Assembly: GCF_018350175.1 (NCBI RefSeq)
Contig: NC_058368.1
Coordinates: forward strand, 14,200,001-14,264,000
Direction: 5' to 3'
Length of the DNA stretch: 64,000 bases
From: Felis catus
Taxonomy: Eukaryota
Shown here: positions 6,871 through 62,009 of the stretch, one piece after another
Layout of the letters: every line of letters starts with the position of its first letter
How positions within the stretch are numbered: the first letter of the stretch is position 1
Program-made: the position numbers and the translations under genes
The notes under the pieces: generated by a model
Seen by the model: the letters and a program-made list of their open reading frames with translations, nothing else
Databases searched by the model: none
Told to the model about the DNA's origin: nothing

Positions 6871-7269
6871 AAGAAAGGTAATAGGTACCTATATGTATTA
6901 TTTCATAGCATCTTCGGGAGAGTATGGGGTAGCTTGTTAATCAAGCACATTAATGTGTCTGCAGTGATACATAAGGATGTTCACACTAAGTGGAATAAAG
7001 ATTGTGAATAGCGCCAACACTATTTAGGTGAAATTATGCTGATAATTAAGTTTGCAACAATCTTACAAGAAAGCTGCTTTTCAAAGCTGCTTGGATTTTA
7101 AATTATAAAGCATCATAGATATATAATCGAAAATAATTATCCGCGCAGTTTAAAAAATTTATAGATGTATGCATGCGCACATGTATGTGTTCTCTCTCTT
7201 CTTTACACACAGACATACACATGCACATGTACACACACATCTTGTGATGAGTAAATAGATTTTTTGGAA

Positions 7270-7417
7270 GACAGCCAAGCCGACTTGTTTTATGTGTTAT
7301 GTGGCTGTTTTTGCTCTGCCTTGGCAGAGTTGAGTAGTTGTAACAAAAATTTATGGCTGCCACCAAAGCCTGAAATATGTTACCTGTGCCTTTATAGAAA
7401 AAGTTTGCTGACTCCTG
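7270..7417 (-). mobile_element. MER58A-like hAT DNA transposon relic
   Basis: ggcagagttgagtagttgtaac...tttatagaaaaagtttgctgactcctg. Confidence 0.7.
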
Positions 7418-7599
7418 ATATATAGAGAATTCAGTTTTGTTCCTATTCTAAAGACATTAAGACTTCCATAAGTTGCTGGCATCTTAGTTTTCAGTGAACT
7501 GAAGTAAATTAGTGAATGAATGAACTCTCACTGTCTCTACAGTATTTCGAGGTGGGTTTTTTTTTTTCAGTTGAAATGTATAATCTAAAAATAAACTGT

Positions 7600-7821
7600 G
7601 GGGCGCCTGGGTGGCGCAGTCGGTTAAGCGTCCGACTTCAGCCAGGTCACGATCTCGCGGTCCGTGAGTTCGAGCCCCGCGTCAGGCTCTGGGCTGATGG
7701 CTCGGAGCCTGGAGCCTGTTTCCGATTCTGTGTCTCCCTCTCTCTCAGCCCCTCCCCCGTTCATGCTCTGTCTCTCTCTGTCCCAAAAATAAATAAACGT
7801 TGAAAAAAAATTAAAAAAAAA
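7600..7821 (+). mobile_element. Young SINEC_Fc-type CAN-SINE
   Basis: CpGs retained throughout; perfect 14-bp TSD taaaaataaactgt (7586-7599 and 7822-7835). Confidence 0.95.
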
Positions 7822-8269
7822 TAAAAATAAACTGTAATAGTTTAATTACACTTAAAAAGCTTTTACTTAGAAAATGAACTTAATGTTATTTTAGTTTCTG
7901 GAAGGTAATATTATAATTGTTTCCATTTGTAATGCAGTTTTAAATTAAAATCTTTGAAATAACATGAAATCTTGAAACATGAAAACAGTAATATTACGTA
8001 TACACATATTAATATTAGTTGTAGTTAATATTCAAGCCATCATCATTATTGCAAAGGATGTTTAATATTAAGTTTTTTATTTGGTTTTGGTGTTTTGGTT
8101 TTAAATGAGAAAGTCACACAAATTACCTCCTTTGCTAATTTTTAAGTTTTGGCCTTAATAAGTTCAGATGACTTACATGGTAAAGCTGGAAGTAAGTTTT
8201 TACATACAGGGGCATACCACAGTGATGAAATAGAAAAACAAATTTAATATTTCAGATAAGAAAGTAAAA

Positions 8270-26476: not shown

Positions 26477-26827
26477 TATTTTTTTATTTAATAAAGTTAT
26501 CATTTCTTGATATCTTTCTGATTGTTTCTAGTAGCATATGTTTTCTCACCAAGGAAGAAATATCTTCAGCAACTTAACATAGCATATAAATGTGTTTGTT
26601 TATTGTATATATTTAGAGTTATAGAAAAAATACTGTTTAAAAAATATCTTATAAAACAACCTAGATTATTTTTCATTATAAATACAAACACAAGTATGTG
26701 TGTGTGTATGTGTGTGTATATATCTATCTATCTATATATATATGCATAAGAATATTTGTAATAAAAAGCGGTGTTAAATTTATTTACATAATTTAATGAT
26801 CTACTAGGATCCTGGGAAACTTACACT

Positions 26828-26902
26828 TATTTATATTTACATTTACATTTACATTTACATTTATATTTATATTTATATTTATATTTATATTTATATTTAT
26901 AT
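26828..26902. repeat. Compound hexamer microsatellite (TTTACA)n(TTTATA)n
   Basis: Read directly. Confidence 0.9.
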
Positions 26903-28705
26903 GAAACACCAACTTTTAGTAACCAATTGGATCTACTTCCACATTGCCTAATGGTTTTTCTATGGCTGAATTTCATATCAATAATCTCTTTGAGATTGAT
27001 TATTCATTTCTTATATCTGATTTTTCCTATATGCTTTAGTAGGATGTTCATAAAAATAAGCAATGAAAATGAAAACAAAAGATACATTGAATACTTGCAT
27101 ATTTATTTTCATTAGTTCATTTTTGTATTCATTGAAAACATTAGTTATATCTGGTTTTATTTATATACAGTATGTTTTTACTTCAATCCTTTTACTTACT
27201 AATTTCTCCAACTTACTGCACAGAATTTATAAGCACACTTGTTATAATGAACATTCACAAGGAAAATATTTGAGGCACATAACCTACTTCTTTTCCTGGC
27301 AATTAATGATAAGTAGACATTAAGGATATAAAAGCAAAAAAATCAATTCTGGAGTTCCTGAAGACAAGATTTCAACTTAACCCTCCTTTTTTTACCATGA
27401 AATATTTTCAAAGATTTTGAGATGGATTGAGTCTCTAAGGACATTAAGTTGGTTCACCTAATTGTATACAAAGCAAAAGGAAATGAGAAATGTGAATTGA
27501 GCTGACATAGAGGAGGAAAAACCGTTGGGGGGAAAAATATGTCCTGGGTCTGAGATTTCTACTAGGTCATCTAACTACCATGAAGTGATTGTTGAAGAGA
27601 ACATAGGGATTTCATTGTCATCCTTCTGGAACCTATTTGTCTTCAAAGTGTTTAGTTTCAAAGGATCCTTAACTTGATATCCAATTCTCTGAAAAAGTCC
27701 TTCATCTTGAGGAAATTTTATGCATCCATATAGAAGAGTTAAAAAATTATGACAAAACTGTCTACAGACTTGGCATCTCTCTGCAGGCATTCAAACCTAG
27801 TTTAGTGTGTTTCCCATGAAGACAAAAATTTGATGCCGATGTTTAATTTACACCTTTTCTTATAGATGTTCATTTTTTTCCAACTTGAATGAATGCATAT
27901 GTGCGTGTTTTCTCAAATGGCAGAAAACTTTCTGGAATGAATTCGTAGACACAATTTGAAAATACACTTTTTTCCTGTCATTGCCAAAAGATTGTCTTTG
28001 TTGAAATGACAATAGATTATTACCCCTTTGTATACATTCTCATTGTCCGTTTCCCTTGTTTTAGGTAATTTCTCTAAGTCTACATGTCAGAGAGAATTGT
28101 TAGAAAGCTAGGACAGCGATTAAAGTGTCTTCCCTGTCCAGCTCTCACCCATTCATCAACTCTCAATGTAGTTTATGCCTCAGCCATCACAACAAACACA
28201 GCGCTCCTCTCTATGCTAGGTACTCTACTTGTGAGCCTCTCAATATTTTACCTAATTATTCTTTTGAAACTCCTAGAATCAGTTACATGGTAATGCACAT
28301 TTAAGAAACACTTTTTAAAATGCAGAACCAAATGTGCATCAGTGTTAAAGAATAGGACCATTGCCTAGCCTCTATCATTACTCACATTTTTTTACACAGT
28401 CACTAGAAGTTAACATTTGAGTCCTACAAAAATACCATGTGGGAGAATGAAATGCCATGTCAGAACTGGAAAGGACCTTAGTTACGGTGTTATTTTAGGG
28501 ATGTGAATACCTCAGTAATTATGGTGTAAGTTATGATGTAATTATGATACAATAAGATACTATTTATGAGAAGGAAATTTAAATAAGTGAACAGTCTGAA
28601 GGAAAAAATATATATTACCTCATGACTAAATTACTCCACGCTGGGAAGTTAGGTACTTTGAGGTTTGTATTGTGCAGTCTTTTTGGGAGAGAGAGATGAC
28701 CTAAG

Positions 28706-28865
28706 ACAGTGGTTGTCAACACTGACTTTACATCAAAATAATTTGGGAAGATTTAAAATGATACCAATGCCTGGACCCTGTCATTGGAGATTATTGTCTT
28801 ATGATTGGTACTTTTTAACAACTCCCCCGTTGATTCTTCTGTACAGCCAGATTGAGAACCATACA
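28706..28865. mobile_element. MER5A-like hAT relic
   Basis: cagtggttgtcaac...ccaatgcctggaccc...cagccagattgagaacca. Confidence 0.6.
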
Positions 28866-28964
28866 TTGAAGCGATACCCTTAATTTGGGAGGATTAAGTT
28901 CAGTTCGACAACAAAAGTACATTGAGTATGTACAGTATGCCAGGCATTTGTACTTAATATCCCA

Positions 28965-29156
28965 GGGCACCTGGGTGGTTCAGTCGGTTGAGCGTCCGAC
29001 TTTGGCTCAGGTCGTGATCTCATAGTTCGTGAGTTCGAGCCCCACATTGGGCTCGCTCCTGTCCGTGTCAAGCCTGCATCAGATCCTCTGTCCCCTTCTC
29101 TCTGCCCCTTGCCCACTTACACTCTCTTTCTCTCAAAAATAAACATTAAAAAAAAA
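28965..29156 (+). mobile_element. CAN-SINE
   Basis: gggcacctgggtggttcagtcggttgagcgtccgac...aaaataaacatt. Confidence 0.9.
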
Positions 29157-29899
29157 GATCCTCCCTTTCATTAACAAATTTATGATGTAATAGGGAGATA
29201 CATGTGTGAGTATATTACTACAAAATATAAATATATTTCACAGGGAATATTTTCTGATTAATGAAAGTATTAAGCAGTGAGAAAATAATGATCTAGGCTT
29301 GATCCCATTTCCAGAGTTTTAAGATTATCATTTCTTGTACACACTTTTGGGATTTATTACATTACCAACATAAACTGTTGTTACAAGTTATACTTTTCTT
29401 GGAGAGTACTTTTCCCTTCACATTCCAGTTTTTTCTTTGCATTTACACATTTTTGTTTACTATTCAGTACTGAGTATGATATTTTACTGAGGTTGTAAAG
29501 AGTTTGGAATTTTCAAAGATGCCCAAATAATTATTTGTGCTATTTTTATAACTGTCATTCAGAAATTATTAAACGAGCTTTAAAAACCATATTCAAGCCT
29601 GATGATTTCTGAGATAAAATATACTTTATCTTCTGAGGAATATTTTGTTGTCCCTTTTTCTCTCATTTAGTTTTTTTCTTCTCATTTGAAAGAAAGAAAC
29701 CTGTGTTTATGAGATGCCTTATGAGATGTAGAGAGGAACACAGGCAATGGACGTGAAGCTTGAGCAAGAAATTCATCTTTGGTTTTTAAGCCCCTGAGAT
29801 TCGGGGGCTGTCACAATGTAATCTTGTCTCTCCTGTGGGAGAGATGCCCTCATTTTTGGCAGAGTAAACCATTACTAGGTTCTTTAAAGAGAGTGGATG

Positions 29900-30715
29900 A
29901 AAAGCAAATATTTATTTGTGCCTGTCTGAAAATGTGACTCATCTATCCTCATATGTTATTGATACTTTGGGTAGATATTGTGCCCTGAATGTTCTCCATA
30001 ACTGTGCAAGCATTTCCTTTTCTTCTCTTTTCTGGATTTGCTACTGAGAAGTTTAGTTTGATTCTTATTCTTGATTCTTTGTATTTTTTTTCCTGTTAGC
30101 CTTTTTCTTAACCCTCATGTTAAGGAAAATGTTGTGATGATGTGCCTTGCTAGGGGTTTTATGTCATGTACTTCATTCCTGGGAGCAATTTTATTTTTTT
30201 TATTTTTATTTATTTTTTTTCAATATATGAAATTTATTGTCAAATTGGTTTCCATACAACACCCAGTCTCATCCCAAAAGGTGCCCTCCTCAATACCCAT
30301 CACCCACCCTCCCCTCCCTCCCAACCCCCCATCAACCCTCAGTTTGTTCTCAGTTTTTAAGAGTCTCTTATGCTTTGGCTCTCCCTGGGAGCAATTTTAA
30401 ATTTATCTGATTTAAACTAAATCCTCTCTTCCATGGTCCCCATCCACTCTTTCTAGACTTCCTACTCAGTGGGCCTTTCAGTTGGAGAGCCTCCAGTTTC
30501 CTTATTTCTTTACTTTTGTTGGTGCTGTTACGGTTTTTGCATCCCTTTTTCCTTTTGTTGGCACCTTATCTTTTTTTTCTGTTTTCTGGGGGGAGATGTT
30601 TGCAACTTTGTCTTTTAAGCCTTCTTTTTTTGATGCTTGCAATGTCTTCACATCCCTTAACCGTGTAATTACAGACTCATTTTTCTGTTTCTTCCCTGCC
30701 TTTCATTTTCCAAGG
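29900..30715 (-). mobile_element. HAL1/old L1 ORF1-region relic
   Basis: T-rich text resembling recalled HAL1 antisense (gctactgagaagtttag; gatgatgtgccttg; ttctggggggagatgtttgcaactttgtctt). Confidence 0.5.
30194..30383 (-). mobile_element. Young 5'-truncated felid L1 3' end (about 190 bp)
   Basis: Poly(T), aaattggtttccatacaacacccag...ccctcagtttgttctc; perfect 16-bp TSD cctgggagcaatttta (30178-30193 and 30384-30399). Confidence 0.9.
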
Positions 30716-30718
30716 TTT

Positions 30719-30754
30719 TTGTTGTTGTTGTGTTGTTGTTGTTGTTGTTGTTGT
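30719..30754. repeat. (TTG)n microsatellite
   Basis: Read directly. Confidence 0.85.
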
Positions 30755-30799
30755 TCCTGGTATCTCGTTTGTACTCTTGTCTTGGTCTGGGTCTTTCTT

Positions 30800-31665
30800 G
30801 TCGAGTTGCCAACTCGAGATCATGGCTTCAACAGTGATAGTAGAAGTGTCGGCAGCGGCTCTTCCGTGAGCTCTAGCACCAGCTCCGGCACCTGTGGAGT
30901 TCGGGAGAGCAACTGAACAAGCTGTAGGGCCTCACACAGCTCTGGGGCCCCTTCCAGCCCCAGAACTGAAGGCAGTGCCTGCTCTAGAACTAGAAGCAGC
31001 TCCAGACCCGCTCCAGGACAGAGCTCGAGCCGGCCCCGGGGATAAAGGTAGTGCCATCGTGAACTGCAGCACTGGCTCCAGCAGCAGTTCCAGAGCCGGG
31101 GCCAGTTTCAGAACAGGTCCCAGTGGCGGCTCTGGAGCCACAGCCAGCGTCTGCACCAGCTGCAGCGGTAGAGCTAGGGCTGGCTGCCGAGCTACAGCCA
31201 GCTCCAACAGGAGCTCTTGCTCCCACCCCGCACTTCACGCCAGTTCCGGCCCTAGCTCCAGAGTCACGAGCAACTCCAGCTCCGGAGTCCTCTGCATCAC
31301 CAGTTTTCACACCAGGTCTGGCAACAGTGCGAGACTTAGAGTCAGCCCAGAACTAGAGCCAGTCCAACAACCAGCTCTCTCACTGCAGTCTGAGCATCAG
31401 CTCTAGAGCTGGATCTAGCTCCACACCGAGTGCCAACTCTGGTACCGTACCACCATTGGCATCACAGATAGAGTCAGCTCCAGAGGGAGAGCCCGCGTAG
31501 GCTCCAACTCCCGTGCCAGCCCCCGCTACAGCCAGCGCCAGCTCTCACTTTCCATCCCCTCCCTTGGGATGGCATCTTTTTGTCTTTTCTACTTTTCAAT
31601 TTATATTGCGTATACTTTGGGGCGTGCTGTATTTTGCGTTTTACAAGTCACGTGCAATAAAACTT
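30800..31665 (+). other. GC/CpG-rich degenerate (GCTCCA/GAGCTA)-type hexamer island; possible decayed Ala/Pro/Glu-rich nested gene
   Basis: Abrupt composition shift; gagatcATGG at 30822; TGA at 30867; long overlapping open frames; AATAAA at 31656-31661. Confidence 0.5.
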
Positions 31666-31849
31666 AAATTCTTGATCATCAAAAGGAGAATGATGTTAGT
31701 GATTAAAGGGTCTTGTTTGTATCTTTTTGTTTCGTTGAGCCAATGCAACCAGTGAATTATTTTCTTTTAAATAGTGCTATAATAACTTTGCTACTGTTCC
31801 TAAATTTTGTTAGATCTTTTCTTATCTCTGTTAACTGCTTCTTTTTCTG

Positions 31850-32069
31850 TTTTTTATTTGAAGTTTTTATTTATATTCTAGCTACTTAACATATGGTAAA
31901 ATTGGTTTCAGAAGTAGAATTTAGTGATTCATCACTTACATACAACAGTCAGTGCTCATCACAAGTGCCCTCCTTAATACCCAACACCTATGTAACTCAC
32001 CCCCACACCCACCTCCCTCCATCAACCCTCAGTTTGTTCTCTCTAGTTAAGAGTCTCTTAGGGTTTGTT
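31850..32069 (-). mobile_element. Carnivore L1 3' end fragment
   Basis: tcagaagtagaatttagtgattcatcacttaca...ccctcagtttgttctc...aagagtctctta. Confidence 0.85.
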
Positions 32070-32277
32070 GGGGCGCCTGCATGGCTCAGTCGGTTGGGCA
32101 TCCAACTCTTGATTTTGGCTCAGGTCATGATCTCATAGATGTGGGATTCAGCCCTGCATCAGGCTACGTGCTGAGCCTGCTTTGGATTCTCTCTTTCCCC
32201 CTCTCTCTGCCCCTCCCTCCCTCACTCACACTTGCTCTCTCTCTCTCTCAAAATAAATAAATAAACATTTTTTTAAA
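32070..32277 (+). mobile_element. CAN-SINE inserted in the L1 fragment
   Basis: Degenerate TSD aagagtctcttagggtttg / aagagtctcatggtttg. Confidence 0.9.
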
Positions 32278-34451
32278 AGAGTCTCATGGTTTGCTTCTCT
32301 CTCCCCTTTTTCATTTTAGAAATGTGAATGATTCCCAAAACTCAGCCTAGGTCTTTTGATCCACTTTCTGTTGATTCTTCTTTAGAGACGTGCCTCTGGT
32401 TTGCCTTAATCAATATTTTCATGTAAATAATCTCAAATTCCACATTCTATTTGATATACCATCATGATTCTCAATCCAACAAATATAAACTTAAGCAATC
32501 GTATGGTTTTCCTCAAATGTGTTCCATTCTCAAATATTTTCATGAGAATGCCACCATTCTTCCTGCCATTCATGTTAAACACTTAAACCTTATATTCTTC
32601 CACGTTGTTACTTTAGCCGTTAAATCCAGTTTCTCATCCAGCCCTGCCATCTCTTCTTTGTAATGTCTCTTGTTTTCCATTCACCTGTGCGAAGTACCAG
32701 TGTAGGCCTCTATTGCTTCTCTTCCGGAAAGGCACATAAAACAGTCTTCTACCACTTTCTCTTCCTCAAAAATGTCAAATTACTCTTCTAAAACATATTT
32801 CTTGCATGAAGTCTTGCAGTGATATATTTTCAGTGTCTTTCTTCATCCTTTAAATTCTAATATCCTTAACTTGGCTAGGACTTATTTGTGCTGCTCCTCT
32901 ATCAAAGATTGCAGATTAGTGTCTCATGGGCTGAGGCGTCTCACAGATATTTTTTGTTTGATCTTTGATCTGAACAGAGTTTTTAAAACATTTTACTCTG
33001 TGATCTTTTAGACACAGTATAATTTGGGATGCATATGTAATATCTGAATATGTACTTTGAAATATCTTCTTGAAAAATCCCATGCATATTAAAGTTTATG
33101 CTGATAAAAGAGCCTTGGTGTACAAACAGTGTCATAAAGAAAATCATGTTTAAGAAGTTGTCTGTAAGAATTTATTCTTCGGAGTGTCATGGTTCTCACT
33201 ATATAAGAATCAGTTTTCCCTTTAAGCTAATGCCACAATAAATGTCAAGTATTCCTGAGAAATTTCCACATTTTGTGGGATATCGGCTTGTGATAAATAT
33301 AGTATATGTAATGGGAATATACAAAATACATAAAAGGATGATGGTAGAAGACATCTTATTAAAACATAGCAAAAAGAGTTCCCTGTAATTGTTCACAATA
33401 GAAATGATTGGAAAGCTTTAATAAGCTCTGTAAAGTGCAATAGTGGTCTTATCATTTAGATGAATTTTTGCCAAAGGTTATGTATGATAGCTAAAATACA
33501 GTGGCTTTGCTAAAACCACGTAGCCAACCATAGAGCCATTTAGGTCTTTATAAGATCATTATAGTCCCCAGGCTTCCATATCCCAAGTTGTTGATTCTCT
33601 CTCCTGGGGAAATGTAGGTTCATGATATGTTCTTCTTTAATTCTTCACAGATTGACTTACAGCAGAAAATACTTACACAGCAAGTGTCTATGTTGGGGAA
33701 CCACATTTTTTCCCCAGCATGGGTGCAAAGCTCTAAAAAGGCAGTGTGATCAAGAGTAGAGAGAAGGGCTGACATAAAGACTGCTTTATGTGAAGCTGAA
33801 TTTGTGGGGAGACAGGTGACTACCTCGGTGCGTAGCACTTTAGTGGTAGGAAAATCATGCAGAAAAATCTGGCTAGAAAATCTGGCTAGATGAGTGATGT
33901 GAATGGTCAGTAGTTTTTTTTATATAAAATGTATTAACGAAGTGTTTATTTACAGTACTGTTGAAAAGGATATTACTTTTAATCCAAAAAAGTTGTAATT
34001 TTCCAGCTATATAAAAAGCAAAAAAAAAAAAAAATCAGTCGACTAAACCAGGATCCATTGAAAAAAAATTGGTTAAAGCATATTCTAAATATGTCATAGG
34101 AAGAGTATAAAGTAAGCAATATACTTTCCTAATCCAGAAACACTGTATAACAATCAGAAATTTATAATGATTACACTGTGGAACTACCAAATTCACAAAT
34201 ATGTTCTCATCTAGATCAGCAAGGAGAGATTACATTTGGATATAGTATCAATGTTTTCTCCTTTTTTTTTGTTTTTTTACAAATTCAAAATAATTCATTT
34301 GTAAACTTTTCCCCTCTGTACTTTTCAGTCACTTGGAATGCACGTGTAAATAGAACATTTAATCTCCTGATCAATTTAAATATGTTGTATATAGTTCTGA
34401 TTTTGTTTATGTGCTCATTTTTCTTATACTTGGTTTGGTTTCTCCTTTTAG

Positions 34452-34516
34452 GAATGGCAAAATTCTATTCAGAAGAATGCAGGACTTGCATTTATTGAAC
34501 TCATCAATGAAGGAAG
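34452..34516 (+). CDS. NBEA: Neurobeachin internal coding exon, 65 nt: EWQNSIQKNAGLAFIELINEG(R)
   Basis: ttctccttttag acceptor; AAG|gtaatt donor; phase 0 to phase 2, in frame with both neighbouring exons. Confidence 0.95.
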
Positions 34517-60844: not shown

Positions 60845-61039
60845 ACCCTAGTAAATCTTTATTATTTTTGCATTTAAGGTAATACTAAGAACCTTACGTG
60901 AATTATTTCATTAAACCTTCATAACATCTCTACTTAGATTGATACTCAAACGTTTTCCATATTACATTGAGAAAACTGAAGCTTTCAGAGGTTACATAAA
61001 ACTTACATAGTATCACACAGCTTATACAAAAAGAGACAT

Positions 61040-61270
61040 TGTTCCAGTCAGGGTTCTCCAGAGAAACACAGAAACAGAACCAATGGGATATATGTGAGAC
61101 ACAGAGATATACGTATAGGTATAGGTATAGGTATAGGTATAGGTATAGGTATAGGTATAGGTATAGATATAGATATAGATATAGATATAGATATAGATAT
61201 AGATATAGATATACAGATTTATTTTAAAGAATTGGCTCACATGATTGTCAAGGCTGGTAAATCTGAAATA
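61040..61270. mobile_element. MLT2-like (ERVL) LTR fragment containing an (ATAGGT)n(ATAGAT)n expansion at about 61112-61212
   Basis: agtcagggttctccagagaaac...agaaccaatggga and gatttattttaaagaattggctcacatgattg flank the repeat. Confidence 0.75.
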
Positions 61271-62009
61271 ACGTATTCCAGTCACTACGGCTTTCTCCTA
61301 TTTTTTTAGGCTTTTGGGACATGCTTACTCTACTTAGAATGCTTTTTCCCAAACATTCTATGCAGCTAGCTCTCCTACTTTCTTCCAGTTTTAATTCAAA
61401 TGGTACTTTCTCAAAGGAGTCTTCTGTAGCCACTCTGTCTAAAATTCTGCTTCTTCCCCCAACTATTTTATATTGTATTTTTCTGCTTTATTTTTCCTTT
61501 CCAACATTTATTTCTATCTTACGCATTATATCCTTTACTTATTTGTCACTTGTATTGTTTTGTGTCCCACCAGCATCCAATTCCATAAGGGAAGGGATTT
61601 TCTCTCTTTTGTCCACAGTAATATACCTAGCACCTAGAATAATGCCTGATACATGTAGATGTTAAATAAATATCCATTGACTAAGTTAATAAATGAATAC
61701 TTAATGTATACCCTTTTTTACAGTGATACTGGGGATGAGTAGAAAAATAAATTAGTCTATTGTCTGGGACAATTTTATATTTTAAATGAAATTATTTTAT
61801 TAAATGACAAAATGTACTTATCCTTGCATAAAACCAAAGTTCAATTCATCTGGGAATTAGGATGAACAATTCCTGTATCATTGGGTTATTTTAATGGTAA
61901 AATAAAACATGCAAAATACTTAACACGATGTCTAACGCAGAGTAGACTTCTCATATTTGTTAGTCTCTCTTCTTTTTTGGTAGCTCTTTGAAAAAGACTT
62001 TAAAAAGAC

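Follow-up and report, generated by a model that had tools for sequence, protein, structure and literature searches.

A GC-rich, single-copy block of degenerate hexamer units in an NBEA intron of the cat is probably the remnant of an old non-coding array

Results

Locus and host gene

The window analysed here is the whole stretch of 64,000 nucleotides at C1:14,200,001-14,264,000 (+ strand) in an assembly of 2.43 Gb and 71 contigs, and positions below are those of the window unless a contig is named. It lies between exon-sized matches to DUF4704 (Pfam) at C1:14.02-14.09 Mb and Beach matches at C1:14.45-14.53 Mb, all on the + strand. One Beach exon (C1:14526976-14527164) agrees with the neurobeachin PH-BEACH chain 1mi1 at 56 of 56 aligned residues past the splice site, whereas four of its residues differ from LRBA (1t77). 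This identifies the host gene as NBEA, as the first-pass annotation of this DNA had proposed, and the GC-rich block that is our subject sits inside it on the sense strand. A search with DUF4800, intended to locate exons close to the window, hit two other BEACH genes (one on C17, one on C2) and nothing else. Of the 254 open frames with 44 or more codons on the + strand, the 125 that fall from 15138 to 46873 were scanned with Pfam, and no family came out above cut-off; the sole result, DUF5908 at 20.4 bits against a cut-off of 27.7, was taken as chance. No recognisable exon lies within 15 kb of the block, which is consistent with a deep intron, although the middle of NBEA may escape Pfam.

NBEA also holds an intact 395-codon Mab-21 frame (match at C1:14367610-14368149, minus strand, Pfam E 1.3e-41) about 104 kb past the window, and a second Mab-21 frame lies inside an LRBA-like gene (C11 76835372-76835917). 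Both known nested pairs, Mab-21 in NBEA and Mab-21 in the LRBA-like gene, are thus present in this genome.

Unique region and its LINE-1 borders

The block belongs to a region, from about 30385 to 31838, that is unique in the genome. On the + strand this region comprises a T-rich flank (30385-30714; 70% pyrimidine and 48% T over 30400-30803), a (GTT)14 microsatellite directly upstream of the block (30715-30755; period 3 and 14 copies in Tandem Repeats Finder), the block itself (30800-31560) and an AT-rich right flank with an AATAAA (31561-31838).

To the left, and not part of the block, is a 190-base piece on the minus strand (30194-30383) with an A-rich tail, seen as a T-rich run on the + strand, and with a 16-base exact target duplication, CCTGGGAGCAATTTTA, on either side (30178-30193 and 30384-30399). 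It has at least 40 matches in the genome, itself included, and all 39 of the other places listed are 96-99% identical to it. One of these copies (locus L020) comes after an ORF with a match to residues 901-1274 of human LINE-1 ORF2p (E 2e-156, PDB sequence search); Pfam had found no families in the eight ORFs next to L1 copies, one of which the PDB sequence search then showed to be this ORF2p. This makes the insertion the 3' end of a 5'-truncated, minus-strand L1, and a young one; the 96-99% identity of the listed copies points to recent activity of an L1 family here. The right border is an older LINE-1 3'-end fragment, also on the minus strand (31839-32100, right end approximate), which by direct reading resembles the piece at 30194-30383; the 38 other places listed (at least 39 with itself) match query positions 279-341 at 77-91% identity. 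The HAL1-like relic proposed in the first-pass annotation was not found beside the block, the flanking repeats being these two 5'-truncated LINE-1 3' ends.

Some further elements lie outside the unique region. A (TC)n-rich stretch follows the older L1 fragment at 32188-32249, and an element at 28960-29155 with a tRNA-like start and an A-rich tail, which resembles a carnivore tRNA-derived SINE, accounts for a local peak of GC and CpG. The highest CpG observed/expected ratio (o/e) of all 1-kb bins of the window falls at 7001-8000 (24 CpG, o/e 0.73, GC 0.36), which may be a young SINE or something else.

Hexamer periodicity and register

The block is a GC-rich, single-copy run of about 125 degenerate hexamer units (~760 bases), as seen in its GC content, periodicity, unit profile and the genome search, and is assigned to neither strand. 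Its self-identity at lags 6, 12, 18, 24, 30 and 36 is 0.36-0.40, with z between 6.5 and 9.1 (300 shuffles), and this series bears out the degenerate 6-nt units that had been read from the letters. Lags 3, 9 and 15 are at chance (z -0.5 at lag 3), and other neighbouring lags are at or below it. The inferred unit is G(0.63) C(0.45) K C(0.52) C(0.56) A(0.53), that is G-C-K-C-C-A, or NNNCAG on the + strand. The strongest lag-6 excess of the window, above that of the block, is found at 60900-61400 and 26600-27000, which are probably di-, tri- or hexanucleotide microsatellites.

Tandem Repeats Finder (minimum score 30) reported nothing between 30756 and 32187, and thus no array in the block. The units must therefore be heavily diverged, and it follows that only the periodicity speaks for a tandem origin. 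Pure (GCTCCA)5-like runs occur at other places in the genome (20 matches, and 1 with a control pattern), and the four sites inspected among six loci fetched are periodic over only 120-240 bases, far under 760; a length of ~760 bases is thus unusual for a GCTCCA-type unit. One pure run of this type, in C37:17742827-17745856 at about locus position 1500, lies within an apparent Ser/Arg/Lys-rich coding stretch, so a GCTCCA-type hexamer can sit in real coding sequence elsewhere. A broader pattern, six CAG at 6-base spacing, was uninformative: it gave 1344 matches against 402 for its control, and the 100 listed were nearly all plain microsatellites (CAG and AGACAG repeats), with a few other short-unit arrays. 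The cat major satellite, presumably also a GC-rich, hexamer-derived repeat, was rejected as an identity for the block on copy number alone, the block being single copy.

The longest stretch in a constant hexamer register holds 55 units (30998-31327, 330 bases, + strand, register 1 throughout). Around it the register changes at about 30878, 30998, 31328, 31370, 31424 and 31508, by steps of 3, 4, 5, 2, 5 and 4 (mod 6); only the first of these is a multiple of three, and the other five break any reading frame. The shifts previously placed near 31010 and 31340 are thus present, mapping to 30998 and 31328, and are joined by further ones at about 30878, 31370, 31424 and 31508.

Composition and CpG content

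GC content is 0.603 in the block (30800-31560, 761 bases) and 0.349 across the whole window, and the 30 CpG of the block give an o/e of 0.44 against 0.23 for the window. The block is thus GC-rich and has about twice the CpG o/e of the window, but its earlier description as CpG-rich is overstated, as the o/e stays under the threshold of a CpG island. By the criteria of Gardiner-Garden and Frommer for such islands (GC >0.5 over >200 bases, o/e >0.6), the block has the GC content of an island, and its overall o/e of 0.44 is too low. Windows of 200 bases inside the block range from 0.34 to 0.47, and the sole 200-base sub-window with GC >0.5 that reaches 0.6 lies at the right edge (31450-31649, GC 0.52, o/e 0.61).

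The hexamer unit itself gives a clue to the origin of these CpG. In the 55-unit stretch of constant register, CAG makes up the 3' half of 18 units, CGG of 6, TAG of 4, TGG of 4 and other triplets of 23; of the 15 CpG in this stretch, 7 fall at that position. CAG, rather than CGG, is the more plausible ancestral form, because decay of CGG should yield CAG and TGG in similar numbers, yet CAG is found 18 times and TGG 4 times. This suggests that part of the CpG in the block was newly made (CAG to CGG) rather than retained, so that the doubled o/e does not in itself imply protection from methylation, nor does a value of 0.44 require an unmethylated germline state.

Copy number and homology searches

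A DNA search of the 2.43-Gb genome with 30760-31690 returned only the block itself. Three translated queries against the same genome likewise yielded no paralogue (best foreign hits of the first two at E 0.29 or worse, and only the self-match at E up to 1 for the third), so the translated search for paralogues that had been proposed as a check came back empty. These genome searches score the best candidates only and, run without a curated repeat library, could miss very old families. Pfam recognised no family in ORFs of either strand of the block. Word-based searches of 5.8 billion protein clusters with two + strand frames, in limited length ranges, gave no relatives, and a search of 1.84 billion protein representatives with no length limit gave a single one, P0001, described below. 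That same search contained no neurobeachin-like protein among its matches, only P0001, and on this ground an NBEA coding exon was rejected as an identity for the block.

Rfam, run over 28000-34500, found no family that reached threshold; two matches below the gathering score, to the ybhL leader and to Whalefall-1, were taken as chance. The Whalefall-1 RNA match lies at 29824-29898 (+ strand) with 22.3 bits against a gathering score of 37 (E 0.025).

The lack of a poly(A) tail and of a target duplication had been pointed out from the letters. Both observations are correct: there is no A-run after 31661, and no direct repeat longer than one T-rich 8-mer flanks the block.

Gene-like features and open frames

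The first-pass annotation had seen gene-like ends around the block, and each of the features it named is where it had been read. An AG ends at 30805; an ATG at 30822 with A at -3 and G at +4 (context GAGATCATGG) opens 15 codons closed by a TGA at 30867-30869, the whole spanning 30822-30869 on the + strand; a 178-codon stop-free frame without Met occupies 30870-31406 on the + strand, Ala/Pro/Glu-like to about 31010 and Ser-rich beyond; and an AATAAA stands at 31656-31661. If the single TGA is read through, the reading from the ATG extends to 194 codons. As signals of a gene, these ends do not exceed chance expectation. There are 121 AATAAA (one per 529 bases) and 112 RNNATGG (one per 571 bases) on the window's + strand, and the block has 93 AG, that at 30805 among them. 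No open frame in the block begins with ATG, and its frames of 178 and 97 codons are without Met.

The length of the open frame can be accounted for in the same way. When hexamer units are shuffled, 30% of trials give a + strand frame of at least 178 codons, and shuffling within phase columns does so in 36%, against 3.9% of order-1 shuffles (1000 trials each). Since no rotation of the unit contains a stop codon on either strand, long open frames arise automatically, and the frame length seen here is what the repeat unit leads one to expect. All tests run on coding status speak against a gene.

A diverged, colinear relative

P0001 is a singleton ORF call of 259 residues on a 1573-base contig from another organism (E 1.2e-16, 46% identity). 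Pfam finds no family in it, a search repeated with P0001 returned only itself, and a search of metagenome contigs with the two-sequence alignment gave 299 pattern matches, none of which was confirmed. Residues 3-83 are colinear with 30559-30810 in frame 1 (37/89 identical, 42%, with three stops in the cat), residues ~88-113 match the Ser-rich frame 2 at about 30830-30905 (9/26 identical), and residues 123-259 match 30933-31355 in frame 0 (64/141 identical, 45%, with two small gaps and no frame break). We read P0001 as a probable product of automatic ORF calling on the orthologous intron in another organism.

Given this colinearity, the two lineages had not yet split when the block and its T-rich flank arose, and both lineages share the register shift near 31000-31040. 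P0001 crosses frames 1, 2 and 0, which means that the region of the proposed ATG and TGA does not lie in a common frame. With 45% identity in the block and 42% in the stop-carrying flank, the block is no better conserved than non-coding flanking sequence, and identity over alternate residues of the block is even (32/71 and 33/71). Codon positions 1-2 have a residue-implied GC of 0.64 in the block and 0.51 in P0001, so the high GC is not shared. This interspecies comparison covers one species at the protein level only. Coding constraint could also account for 141 columns that keep one frame, but we attribute this to indels of the hexamer array that would have come in multiples of six.

Sequencing runs

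All 100 sampled words of 30760-31690 are present in 14 DNA-like runs from seven studies, although one run may be the source of the assembly. Errors of assembly are therefore an unlikely cause of the stop and the frame shifts. The presence of every word in 14 runs also speaks against length variation of the block, although it is not a length assay.

Part of the stretch is also carried by RNA libraries. In three RNA-labelled runs (X16, X17 and X20, from two studies) the share of the words present is 0.91, 0.87 and 0.75, and in three runs guessed to be RNA (X15, X18 and X19, also from two studies) it is 0.92, 0.79 and 0.78. These six libraries comprise 718-1887 million letters each and were picked from the index as its best holders of the stretch. 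Stray genomic DNA in libraries of this size would cover 2.4 Gb less than one-fold, so shares of 0.75-0.92 suggest enrichment as RNA. The figures thus suggest that the 931-base stretch may be genuinely enriched as RNA, beyond what is expected for a deep intron, the yardstick being that expectation and not a control stretch.

Discussion

The block at 30800-31560 is probably the degenerate remnant of an old hexanucleotide array of (GCTCCA)n type in an NBEA intron, and non-coding. Periodicity, a single copy in the genome, missing coding signatures and one diverged, colinear relative are the observations behind this reading. We envisage that a GCTCCA-like (NNNCAG) array expanded by slippage or unequal exchange inside the intron, that this expansion would predate the split of the cat lineage from at least one other species, and that the array may later have decayed in place through substitutions and small indels. 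The high GC would then stem from the unit, with its four G+C per six bases, and the long Ala/Pro/Glu-like, Ser-rich or Gly/Ala-like frames would be by-products of a unit without stops, while the ATG, AG and AATAAA could be chance features of the flanking intron. As the block lies on the NBEA sense strand, it should be copied into the pre-mRNA, and would presumably be removed with the intron as a passive passenger. Several points weigh against this reading: the blank result of Tandem Repeats Finder, the much shorter periodic tracts at the other GCTCCA-type sites inspected, the 141 columns of P0001 that keep one frame, the doubled CpG o/e, the high shares in RNA libraries, and a comparison confined to one other species. 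Of the two possibilities left open by the first-pass annotation, that of a non-coding minisatellite comes closer: a non-coding repeat fits the data, but the block does not behave as a classical minisatellite, given that Tandem Repeats Finder is blank and the words sampled in 14 runs give no sign of a length difference. The other possibility, a nested gene either decaying or nascent, finds no support in a block with no ATG-initiated frame, no 3-base periodicity, frame-breaking register changes, and neither paralogue nor Pfam family.

The alternative that survives best, though we consider it unlikely, accepts the same repeat-born block and has it exonised: an unannotated sense transcript, in the form of an alternative terminal exon of NBEA or of an independent non-coding RNA. 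The decayed array would be the body of this transcript. As a terminal exon it would be spliced in at one of the many YAG that follow the 400-base pyrimidine-rich tract, end at the AATAAA at 31656 through intronic polyadenylation, and so truncate NBEA; we regard such a transcript, in either form, as a doubtful proposition. The RNA-labelled runs (0.75-0.91 of the words) and the RNA-guessed runs (0.78-0.92) argue for it, as do the shared strand with NBEA, the 70% pyrimidine of 30400-30803, and the 46 CAG and 16 TAG in the block with an AATAAA downstream. Against this, the splice and poly(A) signals occur at chance frequency, and an RNA run may carry the stretch as DNA or pre-mRNA, the runs being the best holders in the index. 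It is equally unlikely that the transcript would be abundant enough for assembly from small RNA libraries, gut samples included, at a locus common to at least one other species.

A protein-coding nested gene is very improbable, and we consider it largely refuted. It would be either a decaying gene for an Ala/Pro/Glu- or Ser-rich dipeptide-repeat protein or a nascent one, starting at the ATG at 30822 and with read-through or a recent loss at the TGA at 30867. The strong start context, the 194-codon reading interrupted by a single TGA, the 45% identity of the frame-0 translation to P0001 along 141 columns that keep the frame, and the rarity of 178 codons in order-1 shuffles (3.9%) would all suit such a gene. 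However, 3-base periodicity is absent, five of the six register changes break the frame, and 178 codons are to be expected once hexamer units are kept (30-36% of shuffles), in a frame that has no Met. P0001 matches frame 1, then 2, then 0 across 30559-30933, which leaves the start and stop outside any shared frame; its identity to the block (45%) equals that to the stop-containing flank (42%), and no paralogue, family or homologue other than P0001 was found in the searches above.

The relic of an inserted sequence, whether a retrocopy (processed pseudogene) derived from a low-complexity gene or a piece of some old interspersed repeat, is just as improbable and was rejected for want of a second copy, a tail or a target duplication: composition does change sharply at both edges, an AATAAA lies near the right one and the (GTT)14 on the left could be the decayed A-tail of a minus-strand insert, but neither the DNA query nor the three translated queries found a parent gene or second copy, no A-run follows the AATAAA, no AATAAA or ATTAAA precedes the (GTT)n on the minus strand, and target duplication is limited to a T-rich 8-mer where the neighbouring L1 has a clear one of 16 bases.

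Read as the non-coding remnant of a hexamer array, the block is ordinary intronic low-complexity DNA. It also carries a caution, in that a stop-free hexamer can give rise to frames of ~180 codons and to plausible "proteins" in several of its frames, along with chance signals for start and polyadenylation. Should the RNA hint prove true, the block would become a repeat-born terminal exon that produces a truncated neurobeachin isoform, or a new non-coding RNA; the gene affected is one linked to synaptic function, and the locus would offer a worked example of exon birth from simple sequence.

Comparison with known systems helps to place the block. MAB21L1 is said to be the known gene nested in NBEA, reportedly from the nested-pair paper of Tsang et al. 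in 2009; the block too sits inside the NBEA transcription unit, but MAB21L1 has an intact frame and a Pfam family and lies on the minus strand, whereas the block has neither family nor intact frame and lies on the sense strand. It resembles a CpG island in having GC >0.5 over >200 bases and in standing out from a CpG-poor intron, and differs in its o/e of 0.44 (<0.6) and in a GC content that is not conserved in P0001. Intronic polyadenylation and alternative terminal exons occur in long genes, and the block shares with them a sense-strand pyrimidine tract, YAG sites and an AATAAA within 0.9 kb, together with its presence in RNA-labelled runs; the difference is that its signals occur at background frequency. 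With GC-rich minisatellites (VNTRs) it has in common that it is GC-rich, tandem, strand-asymmetric and intronic, but its unit is of 6 bases rather than 10-60, the units are too diverged for Tandem Repeats Finder, and the words sampled in 14 DNA-like runs give no sign of variation in its length or sequence. The remaining likeness is to degenerate microsatellite, or "cryptically simple", sequence, a concept said to go back to Tautz, Trick and Dover in 1986. The block is unusually long for that class (~760 bases, ~125 units) and common to another species; like such sequence, it is non-coding and intronic, its short-unit periodicity is still statistically visible after heavy substitution, and its open frames on both strands are a by-product of the stop-free unit.
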